Origin: a virus
Strand: one strand, 5' to 3'
Length of the DNA: 64,000 nucleotides
Virus record (IMG/VR): IMGVR_UViG_3300035670_000065
Coordinates: 1 to 64,000 of that record
Positions 16,870 to 43,059 of the stretch are shown in pieces (position 1 is the stretch's first letter; every line of letters starts with the position of its first letter). The notes under the pieces were generated by a model that was not told where the DNA came from, did not search any database, and saw only the letters and a program-made list of their open reading frames with translations. Both the position numbers and the translations under genes were made by a program.

Positions 16870-16872
16870 CAG

Positions 16873-16898: not shown

Positions 16899-16915
16899 GC
16901 CTGGAGAAATAACCA

Positions 16916-17044
16916 ATGGGATTTAGTCTTGAAAGATTTTTTGAGGAACTTGAGTACATGGTGTCTCATGGAGTCAGCCACCTGGAAGTTCTAAACTATA
17001 TTGAACACATGAAGCAGTATGCGAAGGACTGTAATCAACTATGA
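16916..17044 (+). CDS. Small hypothetical protein (42 aa, not in ORF track)
   Basis: GGAG RBS; MGFSLERFFEELEYMVSHG...; ATGA overlap with D12. Confidence 0.6.
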   Translation: MGFSLERFFEELEYMVSHGVSHLEVLNYIEHMKQYAKDCNQL

Positions 17045-20920: not shown

Positions 20921-21089
20921 TGCTTTACTTCTATTAGGATGTAGTGATGCTATTGTACATGTTTATCCAGATAAATGTAGGTTAATAGCTTCAGAAGGTT
21001 CAGATACACGGGTTAGCATATCCCAATATAAGGGAAAAGAACCGGGAGAATATAAGTGTGAGATTACTATTCAAAAGGATACTAAGTGA
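20898..21089 (+). CDS. Putative lipoprotein
   Basis: Signal peptide with an LLLGC lipobox. Confidence 0.6.
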   Translation: MKILALCSALLLLGCSDAIVHVYPDKCRLIASEGSDTRVSISQYKGKEPGEYKCEITIQKDTK

Positions 21090-21340
21090 AACGACATTTA
21101 GGATGTTTTGCAATAAATATTAAACTGCTGGAGGACATGCCAGAGGTTTTAATGAAAGACCTATTCTCTAAGATGTTAATTATTAGGGCAGAACATATGT
21201 TGGATAGAAACGCTATTTTATACATAGCGTATTCTCCTGAACACTTTCCTGAATTAGTAGCTGAAGGATCGAAGGCCCCTCTATATATGGTGCAAATTAA
21301 TGAATTCGGAGATTTAAGTATGGTAAAGTTAGATGAGTAA
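21086..21340 (+). CDS. Hypothetical protein
   Basis: 84-aa ORF coupled to both neighbours. Confidence 0.6.
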   Translation: MKRHLGCFAINIKLLEDMPEVLMKDLFSKMLIIRAEHMLDRNAILYIAYSPEHFPELVAEGSKAPLYMVQINEFGDLSMVKLDE

Positions 21341-25555: not shown

Positions 25556-25584
25556 TTGACAAGGATTCCTACCTGTGATATAAT
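25556..25584 (+). promoter_or_regulatory. Consensus sigma70 promoter for endonuclease copy 3
   Basis: TTGACA-17 nt-TATAAT with an AT-rich upstream element. Confidence 0.85.
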
Positions 25585-25609: not shown

Positions 25610-26536
25610 ATGGAAGTAATAGAAGAATTGAAAACATCTGGTATATATGCTTTATTTTTTAATACTATTGATAATAAATACTATGTAGGCAGATCTATAC
25701 ATATTTGGGATAGATATGTAGATCATATACATCTATTAAAAACAGGTGGACACCATAACTATAAGTTAGTAAAAGCATATAAGGATTCACGAGAAAACCC
25801 GCAAATACATCTACTAGAAGAAATACTTCCAAATGACACAGAATATATTTCACAAAGAGAAATATATTGGATTAAAATACTTGAAGCATACACTAAGGGA
25901 TTTAATTTAACTGAAGGGGGGGAAGGTGCAGGATTTGGAGAAAACAGTCCTTCCGCCAAGTATGATAATGATACTTATGAAACTATATTTAAACTACTAG
26001 CGATAGGTGATTGGACATATAAAGAAATATCCGAAGAACTAGAAGTAGAACTTAGTATTGTAAATAGTATAGCCATAGGTACTAGTCATCGTTATTTACA
26101 GATAAAGTTTCCTGGGGAGTGGGAGAGCATACAGTATAGACACCTAAAAAGGTGGCATATTCATCCTGAAAATGTCTATGTAGACATTTTTAAAGAATTA
26201 GTTAATACTAATGTTAAATTTAATGTCCTAGCTCAAAAGTATGGGGTTAAGGACGGGGTTATCGAAGACATTGCTGCAGGTAACACCCATAAATACTTGT
26301 GTGACCTATTTCCGGAGGAATATGCAATTCTATTAAGTAAGAAGGGTAATAGAAGGGTGGGCCCGCAAAGTGGCCTCGAGTATCCTAAAGTTATATCCCC
26401 TGAGGGGGTAGTATACGATAGTATAAAGAATGCAGCTCAATTCTCAAGAGAACATGGGTTGCATCAAGGCCACTTCGGCGATTTACTTAGAGGAAAAGCT
26501 AAAAGTCATAAAGGTTGGAGAATTTATAAGGAGTAA
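25610..26536 (+). mobile_element. Free-standing GIY-YIG homing endonuclease (copy 3)
   Basis: SGIYAL...YYVGRS, REIYWI, GFNLTEGG, C-terminal KAKSHKGW; convergent 13-nt overlap with phoH. Confidence 0.9.
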
Positions 26537-27219
26537 GCCTGTAGTACCTTTTTACAAAGGCCAGATCTAACACAATCATTATCATGAAACTGAATTATAT
26601 CCACCTCAGGTAATCCCCCTAACCTATTAGAGGCATCCTCTAACCCATTAACATTTTTATCATCCCGTTGAGCTATATCGCCATTAATTACTAGCTTACT
26701 GTTCTCTCCTATACGGGTTAATAACAACTGCATTTGTATAGGAGTGGCGCTCTGCATTTCATCAGCCAGTATTAGGCAATTTTTAAAGCTTCTACCTCTC
26801 ATAAATGCTAAGGGTACAGGCTCTATGTACCCTACTTTTAGACAGTAGTCTAAAAAAGACTTACCAAGTAAGTCGCTAAACGTTTCTAAGTAGGGAGTCA
26901 TATAAGGTAGTAGTTTACCTTCAATTAGTTCCCCCGGTAGAAACCCCAGAGTCTCTCCGGCAGCTTCTACAGCAGGCCTAGTTAGTACCACCTTATCAAT
27001 GCGCTTATAGTACAGTTGCTCTGCTGCATAGGCCGTAGCTATATAGGTTTTACCTGTACCTGCGGATCCAATACCAAAAGTTATTTGGCATTTACGTATA
27101 GCTTCTAGATACTGCCCTTGGGCGTAGTTCTTAGCAACTATAGGTTCGAATCCGTTAATCTTAATTTGACTAGGAGTAACAGCAGGGGCCACTTTACGGG
27201 CCTTCTTAGAAGTTGACAT
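26524..27219 (-). CDS. phoH: PhoH-family ATPase
   Basis: GSAGTGKT, LTRPAVE, LGFLPG, PLAFMRGRSF, DEMQ, GDIAQ, VRSGL. Confidence 0.95.
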   Translation of the reverse strand: MSTSKKARKVAPAVTPSQIKINGFEPIVAKNYAQGQYLEAIRKCQITFGIGSAGTGKTYIATAYAAEQLYYKRIDKVVLTRPAVEAAGETLGFLPGELIEGKLLPYMTPYLETFSDLLGKSFLDYCLKVGYIEPVPLAFMRGRSFKNCLILADEMQSATPIQMQLLLTRIGENSKLVINGDIAQRDDKNVNGLEDASNRLGGLPEVDIIQFHDNDCVRSGLCKKVLQAYSL

Positions 27220-27220
27220 A

Positions 27221-27691
27221 TTATGCCTTTAGATACTCGGACTGGGAAAGCAGTCCTGACTTATACTTGAACCCTTGTGTATTCTTAAAGATAGTTAACG
27301 TCTGCTTTCGCCCACTAGGGTGAAAAGAGATATGCATCCAGCCTCCGTACTCGTGAATAATCTGATCAAAGCCAGTAGGGTGATAAAGTGCTTCTGCAAC
27401 CTTACATAGTTCTAAAACAGAACGGTGGGCACTTCTACAGTCTATAGCAAACCCAGTGGTATGGTGGGACGTATTACTCGAACCAGGTACTGCAGCATTA
27501 AGTCTCTGAGTACGTAACCAGCTAGTTACTATAATGGGTTCCTGTATATAGGCCCTAAGAGAGTCCAACTTAGCGGCAGCTATTTTCATATTCTCTAGCT
27601 GCTCAGGATTGGGGGTATTCTCAATACCTAGTCTAGCGGCGGTTTCTGAGAAAGTTGCTTCCTCTAAGGTAAAGTACTTGGAAATATTCAT
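27221..27691 (-). CDS. Endolysin, peptidase M15 family
   Basis: ISKYFTLEE, SWLR, SHHTTGFAID, FDQIIHE, WMHISF zinc ligands. Confidence 0.88.
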   Translation of the reverse strand: MNISKYFTLEEATFSETAARLGIENTPNPEQLENMKIAAAKLDSLRAYIQEPIIVTSWLRTQRLNAAVPGSSNTSHHTTGFAIDCRSAHRSVLELCKVAEALYHPTGFDQIIHEYGGWMHISFHPSGRKQTLTIFKNTQGFKYKSGLLSQSEYLKA

Positions 27692-27966
27692 TTAAGGTTT
27701 CCGAACTTTTTGATTAATCGGACATTGCCATTATGCATGTTACGACATTCTGCGTATATAATGGCATTATCTGCGGTTGTACTCATAATTGAATCAAACG
27801 TAACCTCTTGTTCGTCTGATAGCTTATGTAGAGGTTTGCAGTCCTCTAAATACCTAGGGTCAATAATCACTTCCTTCTCGGGTGGAGTTGTATCTTCACA
27901 TACTAATCTTTGTAGAGTAGTACATCCACTAAGAAAGACTAGAGCTATAATTATTAGATACTTCAT
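27688..27966 (-). CDS. O-spanin (Rz1-like lipoprotein)
   Basis: FLSGC lipobox, Pro/Cys content, YAECR..H; follows the i-spanin. Confidence 0.8.
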   Translation of the reverse strand: MKYLIIIALVFLSGCTTLQRLVCEDTTPPEKEVIIDPRYLEDCKPLHKLSDEQEVTFDSIMSTTADNAIIYAECRNMHNGNVRLIKKFGNLK

Positions 27967-28322
27967 TTGTTTGCTCTTTCAATGATTTGATTAAAGGTTT
28001 TAACGTAAGACTCTGAAGGATGACATTTGCCCTCAATTATAACAGTTGGAGGTTCCTGCTTCTTATTAAGGATCGCCTTAATATCCTTAGCCGTATTAAC
28101 ATTATTTAATACAGTTTGCTCTAGGTTAGCCTTAGCATATTCTTGTATATCCTTAATACGTTTATCCTTTAGCTCTTCTATAAGTTGAATACGTTCTGCA
28201 CATATAGTTTGAGCATCTTCATACCCTATATTATAGATATACCTATAACCCCCATAAGCTAAAGCAGCGACAGCTATAATTATAGCCAATTCTTTCCAAT
28301 ACTTAATCAGTAGGGCTGGCAT
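27963..28322 (-). CDS. I-spanin (Rz-like)
   Basis: N-terminal transmembrane helix followed by a coiled coil; lysis cassette context. Confidence 0.75.
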   Translation of the reverse strand: MPALLIKYWKELAIIIAVAALAYGGYRYIYNIGYEDAQTICAERIQLIEELKDKRIKDIQEYAKANLEQTVLNNVNTAKDIKAILNKKQEPPTVIIEGKCHPSESYVKTFNQIIERANK

Positions 28323-28578
28323 CTTTTTTACCTGTCTTTGTTTGTACTACAACATTAGCTATCTTATTACCTGTAATAATACCAGAAATAACCGCTGTCA
28401 GCCAAACTAGGGAGTCTATTAAAGAGGAAGGATTAGGACTAGTACCTAATAGTACAGAGACTTTATACCCAATTAATACATAAATACTAATTACTGCAAT
28501 ATTTACTAAATGGAACCAAAGCTGCGAGGAGCTAGGATTAGTGCTATCCCCTACAGTTAATAGTTGTTTTATATCCAT
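28303..28578 (-). CDS. Putative holin
   Basis: 91 aa, two transmembrane helices, basic C-terminus, upstream of spanins and endolysin. Confidence 0.65.
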   Translation of the reverse strand: MDIKQLLTVGDSTNPSSSQLWFHLVNIAVISIYVLIGYKVSVLLGTSPNPSSLIDSLVWLTAVISGIITGNKIANVVVQTKTGKKDASPTD

Positions 28579-28579
28579 A

Positions 28580-28942
28580 TTAAATCTCCGCGATATTAGT
28601 AGTCACCTGCCAGTAGTCTCCGTTCATAAGTACTAGAGTCGGAGGGCCTATAAAAATCGCTTTAGTAATAGAAGTCTCCGTAGGCCTAAAATGGAATTCG
28701 AACGCTCCATTCCTATTATTTAGATAAAAAGTTATCAGAGTCTCTTTATCTGTAGTTTTTAGTATATGCGCTACAGAGAATTCTCTTAGAAGTTTAGGCG
28801 TTTTTCTTCTAACCCTAACAGCACCATTCGAAGCATAGGTTGGTTCTACATCGTTAATAATAGTTTCTAAGGATTCTACCAACTGCGGAAATCGTCCCGC
28901 AGTTGCTGGGTCATTAGGATGCCCCGGGTAGTATGTTGGCAT
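28580..28942 (-). CDS. Hypothetical protein, weakly like minor tail protein gpM
   Basis: GAVRVRR...LITFY...AFEF...WQVTTNIAEI pattern. Confidence 0.45.
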   Translation of the reverse strand: MPTYYPGHPNDPATAGRFPQLVESLETIINDVEPTYASNGAVRVRRKTPKLLREFSVAHILKTTDKETLITFYLNNRNGAFEFHFRPTETSITKAIFIGPPTLVLMNGDYWQVTTNIAEI

Positions 28943-28945
28943 ATT

Positions 28946-29128
28946 TTACTTTCTAGCTTGAATACTCTGCACAACTACTTCAGAAGAGGTATCTCTAAGA
29001 AAATAGTTGTTAGTATATTCTGTTATTATATGAGCGGCTAACCAATCATAATATACTATGACTCCTTGAGACCCCCACACTTTAGGGTCCCATATATCTG
29101 CCCAAATGTCCTCCCATATAGTACTCAT
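28946..29128 (-). CDS. Trp-rich small protein
   Basis: IWEDIWADIWDPKVW repeat; ATGA-coupled to the 1243-aa gene. Confidence 0.6.
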   Translation of the reverse strand: MSTIWEDIWADIWDPKVWGSQGVIVYYDWLAAHIITEYTNNYFLRDTSSEVVVQSIQARK

Positions 29129-32100
29129 GGTAGGACACCAAACTTAGTACCTATGCCATCTCCTGTAACTACTTTACCATTAATCTTAGTAATGTTGGCT
29201 GAAACTTCCCCAGTGGGTTGCCTACTACTAATATTTGTGTCAATACGATTTAGCTCGGGGGTCAATTCAGCTCTAGTAGCTTCAGCATTATCTAGTGATG
29301 TAGGAGGTGCGGTGTAACCTGCCGTGGCGAGGCGTGTGCTGATGGCTACGTCGATTCGCGCAAGCTCGGTGGTCAGTTCGGTGCGGACGGCTGCGGCGTT
29401 GTCAGCAGCAGAAGGAGCCGATCCCGCAGTAAGGGTTCGCGTACCGTTTGCCCAGACTGCTGTTGCATTGTCCGTCGCCGCAGGGATCGCCGCAAGCACC
29501 GTACTGATGTCCCCCGTGATTGCGTATGTCCCGCTAACCGCATACGGAACCACATGGTCAGGAGCCAAGAAGATGTTTCCGGTGCTTCCCGCCGTGTCGA
29601 TAATGTCCTTGCTCAAGCCGCTGGTAGCCTCTCGACCGTAACCACTGATAACCATCAAATCGGTGGCCGAGGTGTTGCGAATCTTCATTCCGGAAAGCAG
29701 GTAGTTCGCCGTATCCGGTGCGCTGATGTAGGTGAAGTCGTTGGCAATGCCTGTCGAGGTGAAGTTCCAATACACAAACGTGGCATAGATCGTAGGCCAA
29801 GTCACCGAGCCACCTGCAATGTTGCAATTCACTCGGTCAGTCGCTGCGTCGGTGAAGGTGATTCCCGAGGTCGCATAGATTGCTGGCCCGTCAATCGCGT
29901 TGCTGTTGTAGGTCGTGTCGTTTGTCTGCGAGGCCAGATATGTAACGTCCTTGTTGTTCGATGCCGTCCCGCAAGTACCAATATTGGCCTCAATGAATGC
30001 CTTGGCACTGGTTCCTGAGACATAAGCAATCCGCACCCTAATTGCCCTATCCCCTACGGGGGCGCTTGGGTCTTCCCAGTAGTACGGGCTGGTTGTCGAG
30101 TTGAACAGTTCGACGTTGTTCGTCGTGTCATAAATCTGCACCCGACTTCCGGCAGTTGGGCCGGTGATAGTCACAGACTGGTTGAGCGCCACCACATTTT
30201 GATGCGTACCGCCAGCGTGGTCTGTCACGATGTAGTTCAACGAGTCTCCAGAAGGCACATTGTCAAGCCAAACACCCTGCGCTAATGTCCACACCCCACC
30301 AGCGTACGTCCCGAAAGGTGCGGCCTTGTTCGCTGTGTAAGCCGCATTCGCCTTCGCGTAAGTCTCGGCGGCAACACCATTCAGCGTACCGGAAGCACCT
30401 GCCCGACAGACATACTGCGCCCGTTGATAGACTTCAGACAGAGGACGGTTGTTGCAGTCTATGACGAGGTAGTAGGTCTGTGGACCATCACCATCTCCAA
30501 AGTCCTTGGATGTTGAGCCGAACGTGAATGTAACGTCAGACCAACCTCCGACAGTCACTTCGGTTTCAGTGATCGCTGCGTCTGCAAGCGTCGCCAACGG
30601 TAGGACGTTACGTCCTGCACCGGAGCAATCTGTTTGATAGTTGTCGTAGGTGTAGCCCCACTTGCGAGCGTAACCATCAACCAGCCCCGACGATACCAAC
30701 GACCCACCAGCATTCGCTGTTTTGACGAGGATGTCGATGTGTCCAGCAGACCAGAATGAGGTCAGCTTTGTCGTGCCTTGATAGACATAAACGTCAGGAG
30801 TACCGGATAGGCCACCGACTGAATACACGTTGGCATATATTGAGCCGTCCGTAAATTCAACTGATCCGCCGTAGAGGTCTTCCAAGTCTCCGGCAGTAAT
30901 CGACCCATCGTTAATCAGTGTGAAGATCGTCGGTGTCACCCCGTACATCTTCGGGGTGGCGTCGATGTTGGTGCTGCTGTCGGACTCGTTCTGATGGTGC
31001 GAGTACAGGTTCTGGACGCTGTAGCGTGTCGTGCCGCTGGTGTGCGTGATTGCCCCGGTTGCCCAGTTGATCGTCCAGTCGGTGGCGACGTTGCCGGTGA
31101 TGGTGGTGGCTGCGATGTCCTCGACTTGGAGGCCGGAGAATGAGTAGGTCAAGCCACCGTCAGCCAAGATCGTTGCGCCGACTTTGACCGGATGGTAGTA
31201 GTTTGCAGATGAGCCTTTGCGAAGGTAGAGATAAACGGGGACATCGACTGTCGTGTTGTAGCTGAAGCTGTCGGTAGTCTCGGAAGATAGTAGCTCGTTG
31301 CGGAGTTCTGTTCCGTCAGACTGCTTGTTGATCGAGATGCGCGAACCATCGACCATACCGGATGTTGAAACTGTTACGGTGTTCGGCCAAGTGCCGTAGC
31401 CAAGGTCGAACTCGTACGCCCCGATGTCGTACTTGGCGTTTAGCGTTGCGGTTCCTGTTTTTGTGTTGTCACCAACACCGGTAGCTTTGAATGTGATGCC
31501 GACAGTGTTCGCTGAAGCCCCGACAGTTGTAAAGTCCGACGTTCCTACCGTCGCAATGGTGTAAGACAATCCCGCGACTAAAGAACCATCTGCCACTGCA
31601 GTGTTGTAAGCACTTCCGGTATAAGCGGGGCGAAACGCATCACTAATATCTGACTCATTCACACCAAAATATGTAGTGGCGTTTTCAACTTGCACTGACG
31701 TTATTGCAGCCGGTGATAAGTCGGGCCATACCGTATATGCCGGAGGCGTCCCTGTGCCAGCTTGATCCACAAAGTCTGTGGTGGCAATAGTGAACCGAAC
31801 AGCACCCGTCCCCACCATCCACGCTTCACCAGACAATCCGGCGTTGTTAGTCGCTTTTTCCGTACCTGTAACAACGTGCCAATTAGTCGTATTCCCTACG
31901 GCAATATTGTTATAGTAATTTCCGAAAATATTTGTTGTTTGGTAAGCACCCGAGCCATTCAGTCCAGCAAATCCATACACGTTAGATGTTGAAATGCAGT
32001 TTGCTACGACCTGACCACCCGAAAACTGCAAGCACGCTATCCCGTCGCGCAAGCCAATAAACACGCAATTCCTGACAGTAGCCGCTCCTGCAACCTGTAC

Positions 32101-32856
32101 GCCTTGCCCGAAACTATTGAACCCACCAACCCCAATCATGTTCTCTACAGTTGCGAGGGCAACGCAATTCATCAGATAGCAAACTGCGTGTGATGATGTT
32201 GTAACTTGTACTGTGAATCCGTCAAGCCTTGAGTTATATCCTGTCGCAACAAGCGTTTGCACATTAGCCGTTGGTCGCTTGAATATGTATCCAGTACCAA
32301 GTATGCCGTTGTGGAATCCTGCTGATCTGACACCATCTACCGTTGTGGTAACAACCACCGACCCCGCAGGGACTGAAGACAAAGCAGCGTTGGCGGAGCC
32401 AATATCGTCCCACGCCATGCCAATCTCGCAGACTTCTGTATCAACTAATGACGCACCTGAACGGCCGGTAATGAATGCGTTTAGACCGTCATAAATTCGC
32501 TCTGTGCCACTCGTAGTCCAGCGGGTTTTGTCACTAAGTCCAGCGTAGTATGCCGATTTGATGTAGATCGTACCGCTGTCATTGTTGTTGAAAAGTATCT
32601 GGTTCGCTGGCGTCAATGCAGCGTCGGTGTATAGTTCAAACGTATTCGCAGCAGTTGATTTTGCGTAGTAGGTCGTATTCGCTGCAAGCGCCGTAGGCCC
32701 ACCGTTCTGAGTAGGAAGCGTACCACCGCTGAACTGCACCCCAGTGCCATCGCGCAAGCCGTGATTGGTAAGCGTGACCAGATTGGACGCGCCGAAGGTA
32801 ACGACCTTCGAATCACCCTTCCCGCCAAAGCAGATTAGGCTGTATACGGTAGCCAT
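29125..32856 (-). CDS. Large virion fibre/adhesin-like protein with a beta-helix region (mostly a GC-rich foreign allele)
   Basis: 1243 aa, Thr/Gly/Ala/Ser-rich, beta-helix-like stretch ending DIGAYEF; mid-region resembles the 643-aa protein. Confidence 0.7.
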   Translation of the reverse strand: MATVYSLICFGGKGDSKVVTFGASNLVTLTNHGLRDGTGVQFSGGTLPTQNGGPTALAANTTYYAKSTAANTFELYTDAALTPANQILFNNNDSGTIYIKSAYYAGLSDKTRWTTSGTERIYDGLNAFITGRSGASLVDTEVCEIGMAWDDIGSANAALSSVPAGSVVVTTTVDGVRSAGFHNGILGTGYIFKRPTANVQTLVATGYNSRLDGFTVQVTTSSHAVCYLMNCVALATVENMIGVGGFNSFGQGVQVAGAATVRNCVFIGLRDGIACLQFSGGQVVANCISTSNVYGFAGLNGSGAYQTTNIFGNYYNNIAVGNTTNWHVVTGTEKATNNAGLSGEAWMVGTGAVRFTIATTDFVDQAGTGTPPAYTVWPDLSPAAITSVQVENATTYFGVNESDISDAFRPAYTGSAYNTAVADGSLVAGLSYTIATVGTSDFTTVGASANTVGITFKATGVGDNTKTGTATLNAKYDIGAYEFDLGYGTWPNTVTVSTSGMVDGSRISINKQSDGTELRNELLSSETTDSFSYNTTVDVPVYLYLRKGSSANYYHPVKVGATILADGGLTYSFSGLQVEDIAATTITGNVATDWTINWATGAITHTSGTTRYSVQNLYSHHQNESDSSTNIDATPKMYGVTPTIFTLINDGSITAGDLEDLYGGSVEFTDGSIYANVYSVGGLSGTPDVYVYQGTTKLTSFWSAGHIDILVKTANAGGSLVSSGLVDGYARKWGYTYDNYQTDCSGAGRNVLPLATLADAAITETEVTVGGWSDVTFTFGSTSKDFGDGDGPQTYYLVIDCNNRPLSEVYQRAQYVCRAGASGTLNGVAAETYAKANAAYTANKAAPFGTYAGGVWTLAQGVWLDNVPSGDSLNYIVTDHAGGTHQNVVALNQSVTITGPTAGSRVQIYDTTNNVELFNSTTSPYYWEDPSAPVGDRAIRVRIAYVSGTSAKAFIEANIGTCGTASNNKDVTYLASQTNDTTYNSNAIDGPAIYATSGITFTDAATDRVNCNIAGGSVTWPTIYATFVYWNFTSTGIANDFTYISAPDTANYLLSGMKIRNTSATDLMVISGYGREATSGLSKDIIDTAGSTGNIFLAPDHVVPYAVSGTYAITGDISTVLAAIPAATDNATAVWANGTRTLTAGSAPSAADNAAAVRTELTTELARIDVAISTRLATAGYTAPPTSLDNAEATRAELTPELNRIDTNISSRQPTGEVSANITKINGKVVTGDGIGTKFGVLP
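29210..29480 (-). repeat. Imperfect protein-level repeats (DNAxAx/ELxxELxRID) spanning the GC transition
   Basis: AATDNATAVW / SAADNAAAVRTELTTELARIDVAISTR / TSLDNAEATRAELTPELNRIDTNISSR. Confidence 0.7.
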
Positions 32857-32990
32857 TATTTACTCGCCACGCCTTGCTGTTTTTCCCATGTCCTGAAGGC
32901 CCCAAGACCAAGCATACCCATCAGCACTTGCAACGTTAGCATCGTGTCAATCGGCGGGAAGGTGCCGGAATATTTAATTTCATTCATCAT
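32856..32990 (-). pseudogene. Chimeric 44-aa ORF carrying the C-terminal remnant of a 3TM (GTA-type) holin
   Basis: AT-rich MMNEIKY fused to GC-rich FPPIDTMLTLQVLMGMLGLGAFRTWEKQQGVASK, the characteristic end of that holin family. Confidence 0.7.
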
Positions 32991-35128
32991 TTCAATCCTA
33001 AGAATTTTGCAACAGTTAATATCTTCTTGGTAATATATTCGCCAATACTTCCAGTCACAGGAGCTCCTGTGTAATCCCAAGTACCTTTAGGTAGGGTAGC
33101 AGGCATAAAGTCAACTAAAGTTGTTGTAGCACTAGGGTCTACATATATTTCATTGGTGGGATCTAATGTACCGGTTGGGTAGGTCTTATTGCCTTGGATA
33201 AAGTTATCAAACATTATCATATTGCGCTGAGTATTAGATCCTACGTATACCCCATAATCACTATTATTTTGAATTCTAGAGCCAGTAATTACGTTTAAAC
33301 GTGTTGAATTACTGCTTGTGCCAGTAAACTTAACACCACAGCCGCGATTATAATAAATATTGCAATTATCAAATCGTACTTCTCTAGGGGATCCTTCGGA
33401 GGATATTGGTGCATCTGTAAACCGAACACCATCTGATCCAGCCTTCTCAATCTCGCAGTTAAATACTTTATGATAGTCGCCACCTTTAATATGTAAGCAA
33501 ACACCAGTACCAACTGGAGTTGTACCACCAGTATCGGCACCTACAACATATAGGTTTTCTAATCTACAGAACTTAGCATTTAGAACAATACCATCATCTG
33601 AAGAATTAGCTGTTGTTTTAAGAAGGAAATTTGATAGAGAGCAATTAGGTGCTTGTATCTGAATAACGGGGCCTAAATCGCCGACGCTGGGCTGAAATTG
33701 AATACCTCGACCAGGGCCGCGAATATGTACATCTTCCTTAGTAATAACTATACGTTCATCTATATTAGCTGTGCCAGTTCCCGGAGCTAGTAGATATATA
33801 ACATCTCCACGGCCTGATACGGCTTTACTTAATGCAGCAGTAACGGTCTTTAGTGGAGAAGCGGGAGATGTGCCAGGCGCTAGATCAGTTCCAGCTACTG
33901 GATCTACATACCAACGTGTTCCGAAACCTTGGTGCGATGCTCTTAAAGATTCAACGTCTAATTTAGCTTGAGCAGCAACTTCCGCGGCGAATCCACTAGC
34001 ATCTACTTCTGTACCTAGTGAATTATTTACTAGAGTTCCGAAACCTGTGATAGTTATCTTGCCTTTAGTACAAGTTGAATCAACTGTAACAGTTCCGCCA
34101 TTTAAGTGAATCCAAACTTGTCCAGATGAAGTAGCATGATTCTGGTTTATAATCTTCAAACGTCCATGGAATCCATCGAACGTAACATTTAAACGTGCGC
34201 CGTTTCGGTCAAGAATTGCTGTACCTTCATCTGAGTAGCACTCTTTAAAGTAAGAAGCGTGTCCAGAGGACACAGCAGAAGTCTGTCTAATAGTGTACCC
34301 TCTAGAGGTCCCATCTACTAGACCACAGCGTTCGTATATACAGTGTGCGTTATCTAACCCATCTATGATGCAGTCATGATAAAGAGATTCCCCACCTTGA
34401 TAGCCGGTAATCTTACAGTTGTACCATTGAGAGTTGGTGGTTACACAGCCCTGTGTTAGAGTGACTGTTGATCTGAATACATTAAGTGTAGCACCATCAC
34501 CTCTAAATACTAGGGCAGTTACATTATCTGTTGCACCTACAGTGAAGTTACCCTTCAGGTAGAACTCACCCAAACCTCTTAGTGTAGCGATAAAGGAAGC
34601 ATCAGCAAACGTGCTAGAAGGTGCCTTTAATGTACCTGCTGGATATGTAGTACCTGATACCCCATTAACTGTATCTATATAAACTTTACCGTTATAACTA
34701 GACTGCTGAATTTCCTGCATCTGTACAAGACCTGCGGAGTTATTCGAGCGTACAGCTACATTATTTAGATTAGTAACGTCTAGGATGTTATTATTAGATC
34801 CAATTAGAGATACTGAGTATGATCCGTTTTCAAAGGTAACGGTATACCCGTTAATCATTTCGATAACGCGAGCGTACTCAAGACCTCCAAGAGATACTGT
34901 TGTGTTGTGGCTGTGGGTATCGTCGTAGAACTGACCTTCTTCGCTATCTTCCCAATCTTTAAGCGCAAGTCTAAAAGCATTAGTATCAAGAGCATAACTA
35001 GAACCTCCTAGATACGTTAGGAAGAACTGGGGCACGAAGATCTCCTTCGTTACCCCATTCACTATTAGACCTGTTTGTACATAGTCTGCATCTGCGTAGT
35101 CATCTGGAGTGTAGTATAAAACTGCCAT
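32987..35128 (-). CDS. Right-handed beta-helix (pectin-lyase-like) structural or depolymerase protein
   Basis: 713 aa; VYIDTVNG..GT..P and WYVDPVAGTD..PGTSPASPLKTV..A, GDVIYL; repeated beta-helix rungs (NCNIYYNRGCGV, SRIQNNSDYGV). Confidence 0.75.
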   Translation of the reverse strand: MAVLYYTPDDYADADYVQTGLIVNGVTKEIFVPQFFLTYLGGSSYALDTNAFRLALKDWEDSEEGQFYDDTHSHNTTVSLGGLEYARVIEMINGYTVTFENGSYSVSLIGSNNNILDVTNLNNVAVRSNNSAGLVQMQEIQQSSYNGKVYIDTVNGVSGTTYPAGTLKAPSSTFADASFIATLRGLGEFYLKGNFTVGATDNVTALVFRGDGATLNVFRSTVTLTQGCVTTNSQWYNCKITGYQGGESLYHDCIIDGLDNAHCIYERCGLVDGTSRGYTIRQTSAVSSGHASYFKECYSDEGTAILDRNGARLNVTFDGFHGRLKIINQNHATSSGQVWIHLNGGTVTVDSTCTKGKITITGFGTLVNNSLGTEVDASGFAAEVAAQAKLDVESLRASHQGFGTRWYVDPVAGTDLAPGTSPASPLKTVTAALSKAVSGRGDVIYLLAPGTGTANIDERIVITKEDVHIRGPGRGIQFQPSVGDLGPVIQIQAPNCSLSNFLLKTTANSSDDGIVLNAKFCRLENLYVVGADTGGTTPVGTGVCLHIKGGDYHKVFNCEIEKAGSDGVRFTDAPISSEGSPREVRFDNCNIYYNRGCGVKFTGTSSNSTRLNVITGSRIQNNSDYGVYVGSNTQRNMIMFDNFIQGNKTYPTGTLDPTNEIYVDPSATTTLVDFMPATLPKGTWDYTGAPVTGSIGEYITKKILTVAKFLGLK

Positions 35129-35131
35129 ATA

Positions 35132-35836
35132 TTACCCCCAGAAGTTAGGTGCACGGTTCTTAGTCGCTACGTTAGTGGATTGATAGTGGATATCAACTGT
35201 ATGAAGGAAAACATCAGGGACTAGTCCTTGACTTACTGTTAAGTCGTTTGCTGAAAGATACACTCTTCCAAATAACATGCCATCTACCTCAATATCACTA
35301 GTATTTAGTAGGTTAGCTCCACCGCCTGGTGCAGAGGCTAATGCTTCACAAACCATATGCTGATACTGAGTAGTAGAAGCGTTCTGAAACTCTACAATAG
35401 TAATTGGAGAAGAAAAGGCGGCTTGATTATGGCCTTTGGCCCAGATCAATTCCCAACCCCAAGTAACTGAACCACCTGTTACATACGGGTTATTATGGCT
35501 CCAATGTGCATGAATGTATATATCAGTACCTGGAGCGTAATCATGTGGCATATGTGCTGTTATCTGTTGTGCGCTTCCAACTTGGTGGGCATGCTGTTTA
35601 ATACCTCCACGATATACTTGAACGGTAGGTGCATCTGCATCTCCCTCATGGTAGTGCATTTCACATTGTAGATCGTGCCAGCCCCATGTCTGAGAAGAAT
35701 TAGGCCCAATTTTAATACCAGATCCCTGAGTTTTAGGCACCTGAGCATTTAGCCCATCCCTAAGGTCCGTCCAATTTGTGTCCATCTCAGTATGGGTTAA
35801 GGCTGACCCTTTTCCTGCTCTTGTTGTAATTGCCAT
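35132..35836 (-). CDS. Putative virion structural protein
   Basis: N-terminal TRAGKGSALTHTEMDTNW motif seen in phage fibre proteins; C-terminal HMPHDY..GTDIYIHAHW beta domain. Confidence 0.6.
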   Translation of the reverse strand: MAITTRAGKGSALTHTEMDTNWTDLRDGLNAQVPKTQGSGIKIGPNSSQTWGWHDLQCEMHYHEGDADAPTVQVYRGGIKQHAHQVGSAQQITAHMPHDYAPGTDIYIHAHWSHNNPYVTGGSVTWGWELIWAKGHNQAAFSSPITIVEFQNASTTQYQHMVCEALASAPGGGANLLNTSDIEVDGMLFGRVYLSANDLTVSQGLVPDVFLHTVDIHYQSTNVATKNRAPNFWG

Positions 35837-35845
35837 CTATAATCC

Positions 35846-37651
35846 TTACTGATCTAAAATTAGAACCGCTGATAGAGAGGCTCCGGTTGCTGAATCTATA
35901 GTACCTACAATAGATCCTGTCTTGTAGTATGGTGCACCTGAAGACTTTCGGGCCCATCCAATTACAGGCTGATCTATAGAGTATACTTTAGACATAGTTA
36001 CCTGCCCTTGGGCATTCGTATTACCCTCTAGAGCTACCCATGTGGCCTTAATTGTGCCTGTAGGATTACTTCCAGGGGCTGATCCCATTGTATAAGTATA
36101 CGAGTTTGCATCCACCTTAGTAATAGTGAATACACCGTTATTTGCTAAGTGACTTGCACCTGAGATAACTACTTTATCGTTGGTTACCATTGCATGGCCA
36201 GTATGTGTAACTGTAGCAGTAGTACCTGAGTTACTTATTGTAACTGTATCATCAAAGGGTAGATCGCCTGTAGCATTTGATGCTCTTAAGAACACTCTAG
36301 CATCCTGAATAGGACTTCCAGTAGTATTAACCACTGTAACAGTAGTAGGTACCGCACCTGCTATAATAGTAGTAGTGGAGCCTCCAGAGTTTCTAACTGA
36401 GAAGGTAGAGTCTGCATTAATTGTTACTGAGCCACCAGAATTATTATATACTACCTCATTACCAGTAGATCCATCAGACCCTGCGTATCCTGTAAACGTA
36501 AAGTTGTCGAAGGTGTAACTGCCTGCAGCAGTTATTTCTATAGCATGATTAGAGCCATCTGATATAAATGTAAGTCCTGAAGCATTTGCTAGGTAGGTAG
36601 AATTAGGTACTAGCAATGTTGTGGTCGCTCTATTATTACTAAAAGTAGTATCAGCTATTGTGGCCGCACCATCTAGTGTAATCGTATCCGTACGTGTAAA
36701 AGTACAGTTAGTTACTGAAGTAGCTCCACGAAAGTTAAATGTACCTACATTAGTAAAAGAACATCCTGACCAGTTAACAGTAGCATTATCAGTAATAGTA
36801 AAGTTACCGCGTGCTGTAGTACCTAGTGCTAGAAAGGATATGGAGGTCCAATCTACTCTACTTGAAGCATTACGAATTTCGAATAAATTAAAGGTAGAAG
36901 TTACTTTTTCTGTATTATCAATTAGAATAGAGGTATTGGAGTCTCTAAAGTCTACAGCGGTACCTGAAGTCCCCATTAAGAACAGACCTTTTTGAAGGTA
37001 CCCCCCGGGAACGGCTTGGCACAGTCCCCAACGATTTGTATTAGAATCGTTTTGAGTTGCTGCACCAGAAAATGTAGCATACCCGTTTGCTAAGTCTCCA
37101 TCAACTGATTGCAATATACCTCTGCCCCATCTTATTACATCACATCCAGTTCCACCCTTCGCGTTTGCTAATTGCTTATACCCAATTCCGAAGTACTGTT
37201 TCGTACTTGTGGGGGATCCGACCGTTATACTGGGCGTTACTGTTGGGTCAACAACATAGTTCTTCCAGCCACCTAGTGCATCAGTATCCTTACCTGCTAC
37301 ATACCAGGCATAGAATGCTGCTAGGGATGAGCCAATAAGTACCGAGACACCTCCGGCGGATTGGTTATCCACGTTATTAGGGCACTGCTGGTTAATCCAT
37401 ACGAAAAAACAGTCCCCCGTGCCAAAAGTAATACCAGCACCATTATTATACATCATTCCAGTGTTACCAGTACCACCAGTTGTTTGATACTTCGCAATAC
37501 AGTTAGATCCTTGGATAAAGAAATCAGGTTCTAATATAGGATTAGTACCTGCAGTCCAACCCGTTGCAGAGGTTTCCGCCCAGTTGGTGACAGATTCTGC
37601 TGTGCTAATAGTTTGCGCTGTTAAATCTGACGTGTAAGCTGCGGCTGCCAT
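35846..37651 (-). CDS. Putative virion structural protein (beta-rich)
   Basis: 601 aa, Thr/Gly/Ser-rich; beta-helix-like segment and a small barrel domain (TATVTHTGH...NGVFTIT). Confidence 0.65.
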   Translation of the reverse strand: MAAAAYTSDLTAQTISTAESVTNWAETSATGWTAGTNPILEPDFFIQGSNCIAKYQTTGGTGNTGMMYNNGAGITFGTGDCFFVWINQQCPNNVDNQSAGGVSVLIGSSLAAFYAWYVAGKDTDALGGWKNYVVDPTVTPSITVGSPTSTKQYFGIGYKQLANAKGGTGCDVIRWGRGILQSVDGDLANGYATFSGAATQNDSNTNRWGLCQAVPGGYLQKGLFLMGTSGTAVDFRDSNTSILIDNTEKVTSTFNLFEIRNASSRVDWTSISFLALGTTARGNFTITDNATVNWSGCSFTNVGTFNFRGATSVTNCTFTRTDTITLDGAATIADTTFSNNRATTTLLVPNSTYLANASGLTFISDGSNHAIEITAAGSYTFDNFTFTGYAGSDGSTGNEVVYNNSGGSVTINADSTFSVRNSGGSTTTIIAGAVPTTVTVVNTTGSPIQDARVFLRASNATGDLPFDDTVTISNSGTTATVTHTGHAMVTNDKVVISGASHLANNGVFTITKVDANSYTYTMGSAPGSNPTGTIKATWVALEGNTNAQGQVTMSKVYSIDQPVIGWARKSSGAPYYKTGSIVGTIDSATGASLSAVLILDQ

Positions 37652-37989
37652 TATACTACCCTAACTTCAAATCCGCGATCCTGATTTATAATAAATGCAA
37701 TCGCTACTTCTATGCTCTGTAAAGCGGCTGCTAACGCGGTATTACCTTTGGCTACTTCCGCCATTGCGTGCGCTAGGAAATCCTCAATTTCTACTTCATT
37801 TGTTTCTGGATGGTAGTGCCTCTGATTGGCTCCATCTACTCCAAACATTTTGTATTCCACCATTACTTTATACTTAGGAGGTAACTCATCATTAGTAAAA
37901 GTTGGCTGTGTAATCTCAAGTCTAAGTAAGTGAACACGATTAAACTCAATCTGAGGCTGTACTAAATTGCTTTCAACTTGTATGCCCAT
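37651..37989 (-). CDS. Hypothetical protein
   Basis: 112 aa, AAGGAG RBS. Confidence 0.65.
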   Translation of the reverse strand: MGIQVESNLVQPQIEFNRVHLLRLEITQPTFTNDELPPKYKVMVEYKMFGVDGANQRHYHPETNEVEIEDFLAHAMAEVAKGNTALAAALQSIEVAIAFIINQDRGFEVRVV

Positions 37990-38000
37990 ATAATCTCCTT

Positions 38001-38025
38001 AAAAGAGGGAGGGATTACCTCCCTC
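38001..38025 (-). terminator. Rho-independent terminator after the 643-aa gene
   Basis: On the - strand: GAGGGAGG-taatc-CCTCCCTC-TTTT. Confidence 0.7.
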
Positions 38026-38031
38026 CTCTAA

Positions 38032-39963
38032 TTATTCGTCACTAATTCTAGACGCGTTAGCAGAACCGCCTGCAGTACCAAGAGAACCAGTACCTTCAGA
38101 AGTTTTAATCTTAGGTGTACCTCCACCGTTACGAACACGGAAGAATAGGTTTCTATCCTGTAAGTAAACACCTGTGAAGGTCATCGTAGCACCAGCGGAA
38201 GCATCATCAATGTAGCTAATAAATATATTAGCACCGTTTGCCGCAGTATTAGTACTGAAGTCCGTACTACCAATAGTAAACGTAGAACCTGAGTAAGAGG
38301 TATACGCATGACGGGTATATGCACCATTAGTACGCTTAATACGAATTGTACCTGTTGAAGGAGTATCTGTTGGGATTGCTCCTGAAACCACTACAGCTAC
38401 TACAGCCGTACCAGATAGTGCACCATTTAAAGTTAGCTGTCCTAGGTTAATATCATTAACCGGGGCACCATTAACTGTACCTGTAACTGTACCTGAAGTA
38501 ATAGTACTGTTATCAGCAGGTACTGTACCGGTAAGCATTGGACCAATCCACATTTGACCAGTTGTACCGTAGTCTAATAGTTTGTGCAACTTGGCCGTTC
38601 CGGCCGGACTGGCAAACGTTAGGGTACTTCCCTCTACGAACGGGCCATTGGTTTCCGCATCGTAGTTTAGTCTATATCCACGCTCAGCAACTAGAACACG
38701 GTCACCACTTACTAAGTTACCCATTGTAAAGGTAACGTTGTTAGGAGGTGTAATTGGGTTACCAGTGATAAGGTCAATAACCGAATCAGTATATGCTAGG
38801 TCTAGGTTATCAACACCGAAACCATATGCACCGATAAGAGCAGAACCCGTAGATTGACCGCAAGCTGGGAAGCTTAGTGCCTTTTCAGCAACTGCTGTGA
38901 AAGTAGCATTTGCGGCATCTGGAGAGGCTTGAACAATGGTTTTTGTGCCATCAGTCATAGCAGGTGCTGCACCTGTCAGCAACTGAACCCAGATCTTGTT
39001 AGAACCATTATCTGCTAGAACTTGTGCTGTAGCTCCGTTACCGAAGGTTACTGAAGTACCTTCGTCAAATGTGCCTGTTAAACTAGTGTATGTTAATTCG
39101 TGTGTGATACCACGGAAGAGTTCGCCGTTTAGACCATATAGTGTAGAACCAGACCCTTGGCGGGTTAGGTACTTAATACGTTCGTACAGGTCGTTAATAC
39201 CTGCTCCGTTTAGGTCCCAACGTGAGTAGTATGCTTCGTTAACAGTATCAATGTTAACGTCCATTGTATTGTAACCTTCAGCATCATTTGCAATATCGCT
39301 ATAAGGCGATGCTGTCATGTTACCTTCTGTCTCTTGATTGTTCAAGTCATCAGCATACGTTAACGCAGACACGTTATTACCACGTGAGGTCCCGTTAATC
39401 TTGAACTCAGAGAATGTCTTACCCCAAACACGAGTTTGAGTAATTAGACGACGTCCGTCAATATCTGCCCCTGCAGTACGCACTTTAAGCATAAAACGGT
39501 GTGAAATACCGTTGGCTTCATCACGGTTAATACCTTTGAAAGTATCTCCATCGGGAATACTGTTCCAGAAATCATTAGCAATAACTGCCCCGTTCTGGAT
39601 AACTTGCATGTCCATGCCTTTATTCGCATAGACTAAGATACCGTCATAAATTATGTTACCCTCATCCTGGATAATAGATCCGCCAAAGATGTATTCGGCT
39701 GTAGTATCATCAATGTTATAGCCATTGATAAGCGTAATAATGTTATCCGTTGAACGGTCAGAGGGGGTATCTCTAGAGATATCCATGTAATCATCTGCCG
39801 CTACTTGGGAAGCGTCATCAGCAAGACCTTGTAACCAACGGTGTAACTCAATAACAGTAACGTAATTTACGCCAGCTGTTCCATGAGCAAATGTCCCACC
39901 GCCGTCTAGGTAACGAATATCCTTATCGTTCTGAATCTCCCAACGGGCTGCATCTAGTGCCAT
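38032..39963 (-). CDS. Putative major structural subunit of the accessory cassette
   Basis: 643 aa; YVTVIELHRWLQGLADD...TPSDRSTDNIITLINGYNID; AAGGA RBS; followed by a terminator. Confidence 0.65.
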   Translation of the reverse strand: MALDAARWEIQNDKDIRYLDGGGTFAHGTAGVNYVTVIELHRWLQGLADDASQVAADDYMDISRDTPSDRSTDNIITLINGYNIDDTTAEYIFGGSIIQDEGNIIYDGILVYANKGMDMQVIQNGAVIANDFWNSIPDGDTFKGINRDEANGISHRFMLKVRTAGADIDGRRLITQTRVWGKTFSEFKINGTSRGNNVSALTYADDLNNQETEGNMTASPYSDIANDAEGYNTMDVNIDTVNEAYYSRWDLNGAGINDLYERIKYLTRQGSGSTLYGLNGELFRGITHELTYTSLTGTFDEGTSVTFGNGATAQVLADNGSNKIWVQLLTGAAPAMTDGTKTIVQASPDAANATFTAVAEKALSFPACGQSTGSALIGAYGFGVDNLDLAYTDSVIDLITGNPITPPNNVTFTMGNLVSGDRVLVAERGYRLNYDAETNGPFVEGSTLTFASPAGTAKLHKLLDYGTTGQMWIGPMLTGTVPADNSTITSGTVTGTVNGAPVNDINLGQLTLNGALSGTAVVAVVVSGAIPTDTPSTGTIRIKRTNGAYTRHAYTSYSGSTFTIGSTDFSTNTAANGANIFISYIDDASAGATMTFTGVYLQDRNLFFRVRNGGGTPKIKTSEGTGSLGTAGGSANASRISDE

Positions 39964-39975
39964 AGTAATCCTTTC

Positions 39976-40416
39976 TTAACTATAACTCAGGGATATTCTG
40001 TCATCCCATATATTATCAAAATTTGCGTCTCCATCAGCCCAAGTCTCTGATACATCACCATCAATCCCTAGAACAAGCTTTCTTATTCTCCAGGCTGCTG
40101 CCGATGTTAAAGAGCCTACAGCCGCTTCACCGCGGTAAATTAAACTATCTGTTACAAAATCTGTTTGCTTTGCGTAAGGCATTTCTTCCTCTCCACCGGG
40201 TGGACCTGCTGGACCTTGGGGCCCTTGTGCTCCTGATGCAACTAGTATCGTAGTGGAAGGTACTTCAACTACTACGTTGGTATTTTCTGTAGAAGTAATT
40301 ATGGAACTAGTATCTACTTCTACACATATAGTGGATACTTCAGACTCCGTAACAGTATATGTATTGTCTACAGTACTTACTATTATCTGAGTACTTTCAG
40401 TAACTAACGATTCCAT
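39976..40416 (-). CDS. Hypothetical protein with a short collagen-like motif
   Basis: GAQGPQGPAGPPG; YRGEAAVGS...AAWRI...WDDR; possible internal start at MPYAKQ. Confidence 0.6.
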   Translation of the reverse strand: MESLVTESTQIIVSTVDNTYTVTESEVSTICVEVDTSSIITSTENTNVVVEVPSTTILVASGAQGPQGPAGPPGGEEEMPYAKQTDFVTDSLIYRGEAAVGSLTSAAAWRIRKLVLGIDGDVSETWADGDANFDNIWDDRISLSYS

Positions 40417-41006
40417 TATCTAGTTACTTCTTTGACTAAAGTTATTGTGCCTGTAGCTAGAGGGGTTACTACTCCGCCTGCACTTACTAGTTCTAAACTG
40501 TATACAGCGCTATTAAAAGTGTATGCCGCAGTAGTAGTGGCCGACACGCCTAGTCCAACCGTAAAATCAGTAGTATTAATTACTAACTTTCCATTTTCTG
40601 TAGTATATTCATCCAGTGTAGTCGTATCATCTATTTTGGCACGTAACTGCATTCTTGCAGTATACCCCGTTAAGTTGATAGGCTCATTATACTCAATGAC
40701 TCCCCCGCTAATATAGGTCTTATACCCTAGGGAATTAACAGCATTTAATTCAATTGTATCGGAGGTTAATTTAGTAGCAATATGGTATGTTTCAGTATTA
40801 TTAATATCCGTCATACCTACCACGTTGGTAATTTTTATTCTCCAACCATTAGGTACACCGTGTGAAGCACACGTGATAACACAGGGAGCAGCATTGCTGA
40901 TCCCTGTGATAGATTTATATATTTTCTTACTAGATTCCCAGCGGAGTACCTCGTTGAACGTACTGCCTTGGTAAATCTTCAGGTTTAATTTAGCTGGCGA
41001 CGCCAT
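40416..41006 (-). CDS. Putative virion attachment protein (BppU-like frame with an E1-FCCH-like insert)
   Basis: LNLKIYQGSTF...INLTGYTARMQLR...AVYSLEL...GTITLVKEVTR with an inserted ITGISNAAPCVITCASHG. Confidence 0.6.
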   Translation of the reverse strand: MASPAKLNLKIYQGSTFNEVLRWESSKKIYKSITGISNAAPCVITCASHGVPNGWRIKITNVVGMTDINNTETYHIATKLTSDTIELNAVNSLGYKTYISGGVIEYNEPINLTGYTARMQLRAKIDDTTTLDEYTTENGKLVINTTDFTVGLGVSATTTAAYTFNSAVYSLELVSAGGVVTPLATGTITLVKEVTR

Positions 41007-41046
41007 CGGAACTCCTTATGAAGAGATTGTAGTTTCATTTTTCTAT

Positions 41047-41075
41047 ATTATACCATGGGAGGTACCATGTGTCAA
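41047..41075 (-). promoter_or_regulatory. Consensus sigma70 promoter driving the 28.6-41.0 kb cassette and lysis genes
   Basis: On the - strand: TTGACA-17 nt-TATAAT, 40 nt upstream of the start at 41006. Confidence 0.85.
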
Positions 41076-42594: not shown

Positions 42595-43059
42595 CTATTC
42601 TAAATAAATCAGAGGTTTATTTATCTCCTTAATAAATTCAGACGGTATATTAGAGCCGGAATTAAGATTAAGTATTTTTCTTACATATTCTACGCACTGT
42701 ACTCCCGGCATCGCTTCTATATTAGATAGAGATAATACGGCGTCTAGTATTGAATAATCCGTAATCCCTATATCAGAGAAAGCTCTGTCTTCCATTTCCG
42801 CTGTGAAATCCATATCCATATGAATAACTGAGAAAGGTAGAAAGTTACTTAAAGGTACTACTCTAACTTTAGGAGGAACAGCTTCTAAAACAAGTAGTCT
42901 ACCCCTATAATTCCAAGCTACTCCTACATGAATATAATCGGAACTTGTAAAGGTTTTTACTAGTAGCCCTTTTAAATCATACAGGGAACTAAGTCCCCTG
43001 TATGACCAGACTAGAATATCACCAGATTTAATCTTATCGCGATATTCTACGTACTTCAT
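42595..43059 (-). CDS. Permuted papain-like NlpC/P60 (YiiX/YebB-type) hydrolase
   Basis: IKSGDILV, YIHVGVA (His), VLEA, QCVEYV (Cys after His). Confidence 0.75.
   Translation of the reverse strand: MKYVEYRDKIKSGDILVWSYRGLSSLYDLKGLLVKTFTSSDYIHVGVAWNYRGRLLVLEAVPPKVRVVPLSNFLPFSVIHMDMDFTAEMEDRAFSDIGITDYSILDAVLSLSNIEAMPGVQCVEYVRKILNLNSGSNIPSEFIKEINKPLIYLE

Follow-up and report, generated by a model that had tools for sequence, protein, structure and literature searches.

Siphoviruses can encode accessory, dispensable fibres next to their tail genes, as in T5, with its L-shaped fibres (pb1) and the collar protein p132, and in lambda, with Stf/Tfa. Among the closest known systems to the locus described here are the multi-tailspike or branched receptor-binding clusters of phages such as CBA120 (TSP1-4), G7C (gp63.1/gp66) and Klebsiella phage K64-1. 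Flagellotropic phages such as Agrobacterium phage 7-7-1 and Caulobacter phage phiCbK have capsid fibres, a second appendage that is independent of the tail tip. The proteins that form the capsid fibres of phage 7-7-1 are still unidentified (PMC12796354), and a gene set of the present kind would be a sensible thing to seek there. Host recognition hardware decides which bacteria can be infected, and it is the least predictable part of uncultured phage genomes. Here we analyse a 64,000-nucleotide stretch of viral DNA (the window), which is the first part of a 111,992-bp IMG/VR virus record rated complete by CheckV (IMGVR_UViG_3300035670_000065; genome G000 below), and which carries a cassette of ten minus-strand open reading frames (ORFs) at positions 28580-41075. 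We propose, with a probability of about one half, that this cassette specifies an accessory adhesin or spike complex, self-contained and pre-assembled in the cytoplasm, which the virion carries in addition to the ordinary tail-tip fibres.

Such a complex would resemble the tailspike clusters in its co-transcribed spikes, conserved attachment parts, exchangeable beta-helix payloads and extra host-surface specificities. Unlike those clusters, to which the cassette has no sequence or fold relationship, its core includes a 560-730-aa protein that is conserved far beyond receptor-binding proteins, its genes usually stand among head genes, and the set is also found in bacteria. As with T5 pb1 and lambda Stf, the cassette of G000, itself a distant T5 relative, adjoins tail genes, but G000 already has a pb1-like, repeat-rich fibre of 1240 aa (46857-50579). 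The likeness to flagellotropic capsid fibres would lie in a second appendage independent of the tail tip, whereas the module that we describe has no homologue in deposited phages, gives no flagellar hint, and has a head location that synteny no more than suggests. A further counterpart is a locus in Patescibacteria that has the same family and gene order, with a glucosaminidase gene and a gene for TatC, of the twin-arginine translocation (Tat) pathway, downstream; that locus is cellular and its small fibre protein has a twin-arginine motif, whereas the module of G000 is part of a phage late operon and its small fibre protein has collagen triplets.

A conserved gene module in uncultured phages

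We name the cassette proteins by their length in amino acids (g196, g146, g643, g112, g601, g234, g713, g1243, g60 and g120, from the promoter onwards), their families as F0 (g643 type), F2/F3 (g601 type) and F1 (g713 type), and the fetched loci and genomes by L and G numbers. Searches with tblastn using g643, g713 and the F0 homologue of L009 found no match in 50,697 deposited phage records, and a megablast search against deposited phage genomes returned nothing. The absence of the block from T5, which an earlier sequence-only reading of the window had asserted, extends to more than 1000 T5-like records, in which no cassette protein has a match; the only similarity of g1243 to deposited phages spans 56 residues shared with a cyanophage protein. 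The capsid gene of G000, for its part, matches 1029 records among deposited phages, and since the capsid/protease gene is ~38% identical to those of T5-like phages of Serratia, Vibrio, Salmonella and Escherichia, we consider G000 to be a distant T5 relative. Relatives of g643 are nevertheless common: more than 4,200 were found at E ≤ 0.001 among 8,000 candidates scored (90% clustering), many of them 50-67% identical and all unnamed, and an F0 profile detected 1,187 clusters, 302 of them below 1e-30, among 1.84 billion 50%-cluster representatives. The relatives are on at least 298 IMG/VR contigs of 5 to 315 kb and on 32 contigs of GTDB species genomes, all of which are metagenome-assembled genomes (MAGs) and none isolates. 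A literature search found no description of the module. Given that it is common, well conserved and unannotated, learning what it makes would put a label on recurrent viral dark matter.

The core of the cassette recurs in order in unrelated phages. We clustered the ORFs of about 119 fetched loci and assigned families by iterated profile search; these ORFs follow a longest-ORF rule, so that their start codons, and hence the position of the Tat motif discussed below, are approximate. The conserved order is a g146-like gene, F0, F2/F3, a small ORF and F1. Members of the g601 family are found in 80 loci, at positions +1 to +4 relative to F0, members of the g713 family in 74 (+2 to +6), and members of the g146 family in 28, mostly at -1 or -2 and most of them directly upstream of the F0 gene. 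Only the first ~115 residues of the g713 family are conserved; its median member has 202 aa, and long forms add beta-helix payloads. Members of the g601 type vary in length from 117 to 2,993 aa, and at their C-terminus is at least one unit of ~70 aa. Other cassette genes are less constant: g234 recurs in the same slot in two loci (L071/L072) and g196-type genes in three or four (jackhmmer and BLAST place relatives of g196 next to the module in L012 and L020, and a PHROG 1084 member follows the module in L008), while g112, g60 and g120 are unique to G000 among these loci.

The F0 proteins are 42-60% identical to g643 even in loci whose flanking genes give no BLAST match to G000, and the portal and capsid genes, where detectable, are 21-33% identical to those of G000, with the exception of L007. 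Because F0 has been conserved while the flanking genes have diverged, the module is either unusually constrained, or mobile, or both. An IS-type transposase gene (PHROG 506, E 2e-113) lies inside the head-to-tail cluster of one 155-kb phage contig (L008 19080-20204). The genes F2 and F0, a 133-aa ORF and F1 are also present in L114, at ~2.30-2.33 Mb of a complete 2.67-Mb Thermodesulfobacteriota chromosome (OZ244991.1), among co-oriented unannotated genes; this copy may belong to a prophage or represent a further cellular form that lacks Tat.

Elsewhere in phages the module stands mostly among head genes. In L003, L004 and L059 it lies between portal and capsid, and in L008 and L009 between capsid and head-tail adaptor. 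In L007, which by its head genes is most closely related to G000, it is immediately 5' of the portal unit, and in G003 it is 5' of terS/terL. When we scanned 84 large neighbour proteins, one per family, 14 were terminases and nine were major head proteins, and portal, protease and adaptor families were also represented; a search for the T7-type nozzle family found nothing. The G003 genome is that of a 99%-complete, 49-kb (49,363 bp) siphovirus with its own distal tail protein, J-like central fibre and tailspike, so that in this phage, too, the module is extra to the tail tip. Upstream of the module in G003, at 16780-21392 (L122-L124), are genes for a pectate-lyase-like protein of 494 aa, a 358-aa protein and a 680-aa relative of the glucosaminidase of the MAG loci, which together with the module make up a larger enzyme cluster ahead of terS/terL. 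Overall, to judge from synteny in the relatives, the complex would be sited on the head or neck of the virion more probably than at the tail tip.

The proximity to capsid genes in five of these loci would also fit g643 being a capsid decoration or cement protein on which the other proteins are anchored as head fibres, as would its high-copy expression signals and its beta-sandwich and Ig-like domains. We consider this very unlikely: the same protein is encoded in Patescibacteria loci with no capsid genes nearby, and identity of 42-60% among phages with different capsid families is hard to square with a binder specific to one lattice. In G000 itself the cassette is not capsid-adjacent. That g643 is itself the capsid or the tail-tube protein was rejected, as G000 encodes both elsewhere.

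Expression signals

The sequence-only reading had placed a perfect promoter upstream of the cassette and a terminator after g643, and had likened the layout to a major-subunit operon. The promoter matches the consensus at all 12 positions. There are ten perfect TTGACA-17/18-TATAAT sites in the 112-kb genome, and those on the late strand precede terS, the portal unit, the tape-measure unit and the cassette, which makes the cassette a fourth late transcription unit rather than an oddity. Perfect sites other than that of the cassette include those at genome positions 64130-64158, 73810-73838 and 77685-77713 (L010 130-158, 9810-9838 and 13685-13713) and, in the window, at 4136-4164 and 25556-25584. 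The stem-loop that follows g643 is stable (-21.3 kcal/mol, z -3.4), but its U run is short, so that it may be either terminator-like or transcript-stabilising; the Shine-Dalgarno sequence of g112 comes directly after it. The cassette genes are where the sequence-only reading had put them, but the operon does not end at 28580 and continues without a gap to the endolysin and PhoH genes.

Two other genes of G000 end in the same way. There is a double hairpin directly 3' of the capsid gene (-36.7 kcal/mol; L010 6137-6222, genome 70137-70222) and a hairpin directly 3' of the tail-tube gene (-19.5 kcal/mol; L010 975-1042, genome 64975-65042), and these may be differential-expression or transcript-stabilising elements. 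Within G000, a gene-end hairpin thus marks the most abundant virion proteins, and since g643 shares it with the two most abundant of them and has a strong promoter, a high-copy product fits. The hairpin is the best support for the impression of a major-subunit operon; that g643 polymerises into a filament is unsupported.

Structure predictions

An AlphaFold model of g643, built on an alignment of 80 sequences, was of high confidence (predicted local distance difference test score, pLDDT, 93; predicted template modelling score, pTM, 0.82) and describes a rigid, multi-domain beta protein. Residues 1-285 form the alpha/beta N-domain of which g1243 has a duplicate, residues 286-363 form a small beta-barrel, and the C-terminal part is a beta-sandwich; residues 427-504 are an optional, inserted second barrel that is absent from the 560-aa forms. 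Searching with this model, Foldseek returned only generic tandem Ig-like proteins (template modelling score ≤ 0.16), with a weak row for a structural protein of Syn5. An exhaustive aligner found matches to single domains only, none of which covers the whole protein, and the N-domain had no structural match in searches with the whole model. The barrels resemble EF-Tu domain 2 and a baseplate domain of Klebsiella phage KP1 (Z score 7.7 over 71 residues), small domains weakly resemble tail-tip proteins of JBD30, Chi, lambda and T5 (Z 5-6), and in the C-terminal half there is weak similarity to CnaB/pilin-type domains (Z 4.7-5.3). A further single-domain match is to a tail-tube protein (Z 6.0 over 81 residues). 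For F1, a model of a short natural form of the g713 family reached pLDDT 94-98 for the greater part of residues 1-110, after which comes a long helix; the best match of this N-domain among 48,161 chains has a Z score of 3.0, and Foldseek found none at E ≤ 0.001. Profiles of the F0 and F1 alignments found nothing in the PDB, Pfam likewise found nothing for the N-domain, sequence searches with g643, g601, g713 and g1243 against all PDB chains detected no related structure, and the ESM Atlas gave only sub-threshold leads. These two confidently modelled domains, which lack structural relatives, are direct targets for structure determination.

The models bear on two other explanations for the cassette. 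The first is that it encodes an ordinary set of side tail fibres or tailspikes, attached to the tail in the manner of lambda Stf or of T5 pb1 on its collar, in which g643 would be a branching adaptor. In G000 the cassette comes directly after the tail genes, one podovirus-like contig has the module beside an internal virion protein gene, beta-helix and collagen elements are features of fibres, and the resemblance of the small g643 domains to baseplate and tail-tip barrels points the same way. Nonetheless, all of the domain matches have Z scores below 8 and were rated common by the aligner, no known tail-fibre or tailspike anchor domain was recognised in the F1 N-domain by profile (PDB, Pfam) or fold search, and most relatives have the module among head genes, far or separate from tail-tip genes. 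We regard a side-fibre set as unlikely. The possibility that the cassette is a copy of the fibre block at 44-55 kb was rejected, as no similarity was found between the two.

The second explanation, put forward by the sequence-only reading, is that many copies of the 643-aa protein build, by polymerisation, a long filament on the head or tail with adhesins at its tip, of the kind used by flagellotropic phages. The layout of promoter, small protein, 643-aa gene and hairpin does look like that of a major-subunit operon, and the C-terminal half of g643 is weakly CnaB-type pilin-like (Z about 5). However, the rigid, multi-domain model has no fibre or filament-subunit match, export of the homologous set through Tat, discussed below, argues for a finite folded complex, and no link of the cassette to flagella or pili was found. 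As modelled, neither g643 nor the F1 N-domain appears to be fibre-like or filament-subunit-like. A filament of g643 is the least supported of the models that we considered, and we think it highly improbable.

A counterpart in Patescibacteria

The MAG contigs with F0 relatives were binned as Saccharibacteria, Paceibacteria, Zambryskibacteria and similar groups, bins that can be chimeric. Here the same four genes are beside genes for a Mur ligase, a dockerin/MG2 surface protein and a protein with FG-GAP/thrombospondin repeats, and in five loci a glucosaminidase gene directly follows F1. We rejected the idea that these are mis-binned phage sequences, given the Mur ligase, LepA-like GTPase and TatC genes on the same contigs and the conservation of a surface-protein pair; the gene for the translational (LepA-like) GTPase is 22 kb from the module on one contig, and in a ribosomal-protein check of chromosomal location L2 was on other contigs than the module. 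The surface-protein pair, divergently encoded upstream of the module in 11-14 loci, consists of proteins of ~540 and ~300 aa with signal peptides (dockerin/MG2). Patescibacteria versions, including L091, L094, L100, L103 and L108, comprise a small fibre protein with a Tat signal, F0, F2/F3 (up to 2,993 aa), F1, the glucosaminidase and TatC.

In 18 MAG loci the g146-like protein combines a (K/R)R-x-FLK motif with a hydrophobic stretch and an Ala-x-Ala-like site. The F0, F2/F3 and F1 proteins of the MAGs, like those of phages, have N-termini without a signal peptide. A twin-arginine motif was found in no phage version of g146, including that of the window; several phage versions have collagen triplets instead. 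A TatC gene (Pfam) is just downstream of the module in four of the five genomes tested (G006, G007, G009 and G011), and in three of these four it is the only TatC detected. With the twin-arginine motif confined to the g146-like protein and a TatC gene downstream, these loci are most simply read as encoding a folded complex that would leave the cell through Tat, the signal being supplied by the small fibre protein. A tree of 93 F0 proteins puts those with a Tat link in at least five well-supported, separate places among those of phages, indicating repeated exchange between phages and bacteria.

Tentatively, and at rather less than even odds, we suggest that the four-protein set is an ancestral attachment machine that has been shared and repeatedly exchanged between episymbiotic Patescibacteria and tailed phages of many lineages. 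On this view the machine would be part of the particle in phages, bacteria would send it out in folded form, by a Tat system dedicated to it, for use on their own surface, and its two most conserved parts would be folds new to solved structures. The association with TatC suggests that one and the same device serves phages and ultra-small episymbionts for holding on to other cells, and, if this is true, the device is a testable candidate for how Patescibacteria attach.

Proposed function of the complex

We infer that the four core proteins form one complex, which phages would carry on their particles and which would bind to the surface of the host. In this scheme, g146 would be a small trimeric fibre with a collagen stretch and a conserved C-terminal domain, g643, made in high amounts, would be the body or hub of the complex rather than a filament subunit, and g601 would be its spike protein. 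The N-terminus of g713 would be a small domain without precedent, carrying two beta-helix domains in G000. The conserved parts would hold the complex together, and the variable parts (the beta-helices, g234, g1243 and g196) would bind or cleave host surface polysaccharides. The beta-helices and collagen triplets, the exchangeable distal parts and the foreign character of g1243 make host-surface binding and cleavage the likeliest activity, and carriage on the virion is predicted to be likeliest in phages given the late-operon setting and the head-gene neighbourhood.

Four observations weigh against a virion-borne adhesin complex. The position of the module varies between phages (upstream of terS, in the portal-capsid or the capsid-adaptor interval, adjacent to a gene for an internal virion protein and, in G000, after the tail genes), which implies no single docking site. 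The F0 protein is more conserved than portal or capsid, which is unusual for receptor-binding hardware and could mean a different role, for instance an enzymatic one. The module is absent from cultured phages, as judged from the searches of deposited phages. Lastly, lysis or peptidoglycan hydrolase genes recur as neighbours (in G000, G003 and the MAG loci), which would also fit a released, non-virion complex. Such a soluble complex of glycan- and wall-degrading enzymes and adhesins would be released at lysis, or exported by Tat in Patescibacteria, and would act on the envelopes or matrix around the producer cell. Indeed, the operon of G000 follows holin-like genes and runs into spanin-like and endolysin genes, the glucosaminidase gene is found before F0 in G003, beside the pectate-lyase-like gene, as well as after F1 in MAGs, and predicted Tat export would mean a complex that works without a virion. 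We consider a soluble complex decidedly unlikely, however, since several lineages have the module in the portal-capsid or the capsid-adaptor interval, where components of the particle are typically encoded, and since the link to a peptidoglycan hydrolase is found in only one viral locus besides G000.

Genes of the cassette

Coordinates of the cassette genes and their signals are collected in Table 1. The sequence-only reading described the ten genes accurately, including their lengths, shared orientation and tight packing: neighbours overlap or are separated by no more than 12 bases, except for 42 bp after g643 and 130 bp before g1243. It was also right that the proteins are rich in Thr, Gly and Ser (25-36% in the large ones), that they share domains, and that the tail-tip and fibre genes form a separate block, at 43-55 kb. 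As to the beta-helix type that it named, g713 matches Pfam Beta_helix (PF13229) at 35.8 bits (gathering cut-off 25.9, E 7.5e-9); in g601, beta-helix-like repeats are seen by eye only, with no Pfam match. Beyond g713, Pfam and PHROGs scans of nine of the ten cassette proteins gave nothing usable apart from PHROG 1084 and a near-threshold E1_FCCH match for g196 and a weak PHROG 384 match for g120.

Table 1. Features of the cassette and its surroundings (window coordinates).
Feature	Position	Strand	Description
Promoter	41047..41075	-	TTGACA, 17-nt spacer, TATAAT; 12/12 consensus; extended -10 TG; sigma-70-type
g196	40416..41006	-	Small beta-barrel protein; PHROG 1084, near-threshold E1_FCCH-like domain; lineage-variable accessory
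g146	39976..40416	-	Small fibre protein; C-terminal domain of ~70 aa conserved; first core component
g643 (F0)	38032..39963	-	Multi-domain beta protein, very well conserved; probably the complex's abundant body
Stem-loop	37999..38031	-	14-bp stem directly 3' of the g643 stop; terminator-like or transcript-stabilising
g112	37651..37989	-	Small, not Thr/Gly-rich; slot between F0 and F2
g601 (F2)	35846..37651	-	Beta-helix-like spike; two ~70-aa beta-barrel units at C-terminus; third core component
g234	35132..35836	-	Small His-rich protein; accessory component
g713 (F1, long form)	32987..35128	-	~115-aa conserved N-domain (~20-137), then two beta-helix regions; fourth core component
g1243	29125..32856	-	Giant fibre-like protein; central copy of F0 N-domain
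g60	28946..29128	-	Small ORF, putative coding; no relatives in fetched loci
g120	28580..28942	-	Small protein; weak PHROG 384 'virion structural protein' match, E 6.6e-4
Operon continuation	26524..28578	-	91-aa gene, Rz-like spanin, 92-aa lipoprotein-like gene, endolysin, PhoH

Residues 62-76 of g146 are five collagen-type GXY triplets (we counted runs of at least four), and GXY runs are also present in the homologues of L020, L097 and L013, being very long in L013. No homologue of g112 was found in the fetched loci, Pfam or PHROGs, and in other loci the slot between F0 and F2 likewise holds a small ORF unrelated to it; g112 is possibly an assembly factor. The N-terminus of g234 has what we take to be a fibre-like look. 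The beta-helix regions of g713 are predicted to be an enzymatic or binding payload. No relatives of g120 were found in the fetched loci.

Domain sharing within the cassette centres on g1243. Residues 23-283 of g643 align with residues 601-833 of g1243 (E 3e-10), and a 60-aa C-terminal motif common to g643 and g601 is also found at an internal site of g1243; the pairwise similarity of g601 to the N-terminal part of g1243 is marginal (E 0.046). The GC content at third codon positions (GC3) of g1243 is 0.56, rising to 0.72 in mid-gene, compared with 0.18-0.41 for all other genes at 26-64 kb, which suggests that g1243 was recently imported from a GC-richer source, by recombination in appearance. 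Native-looking composition is confined to its last ~40 codons.

Surroundings of the cassette in G000

The late gene cluster of G000 is on the minus strand and runs downwards from ~77.7 kb, with genes in the order terS, a 406-aa ORF, terL, a homing endonuclease, portal, a protease-capsid fusion, adaptor, neck, endonuclease VII and tail tube. Inside the window it goes on to a protein of 2865 aa at the place of the tape measure, followed by proteins of 525, 620, 107 and 306 aa, the 1240-aa repeat-rich fibre, more fibre-like genes, a papain-type peptidase with DUF4214, and three small holin-like genes. The putative tape-measure protein (55279-63876) has DUF4214 repeats at its C-terminus, and the same domain is on the papain-type peptidase (43056-44168). 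Assuming a rule of thumb of ~1.5 Å per residue, a tape measure of 2865 aa would correspond to a tail of roughly at least 400 nm. Two selfish elements have inserted into the structural cluster: a homing endonuclease gene between terL and the portal unit (L010 9897-10448, genome 73897-74448), and an endonuclease VII/HNH gene between the neck and tail-tube genes (L010 3013-3654, genome 67013-67654).

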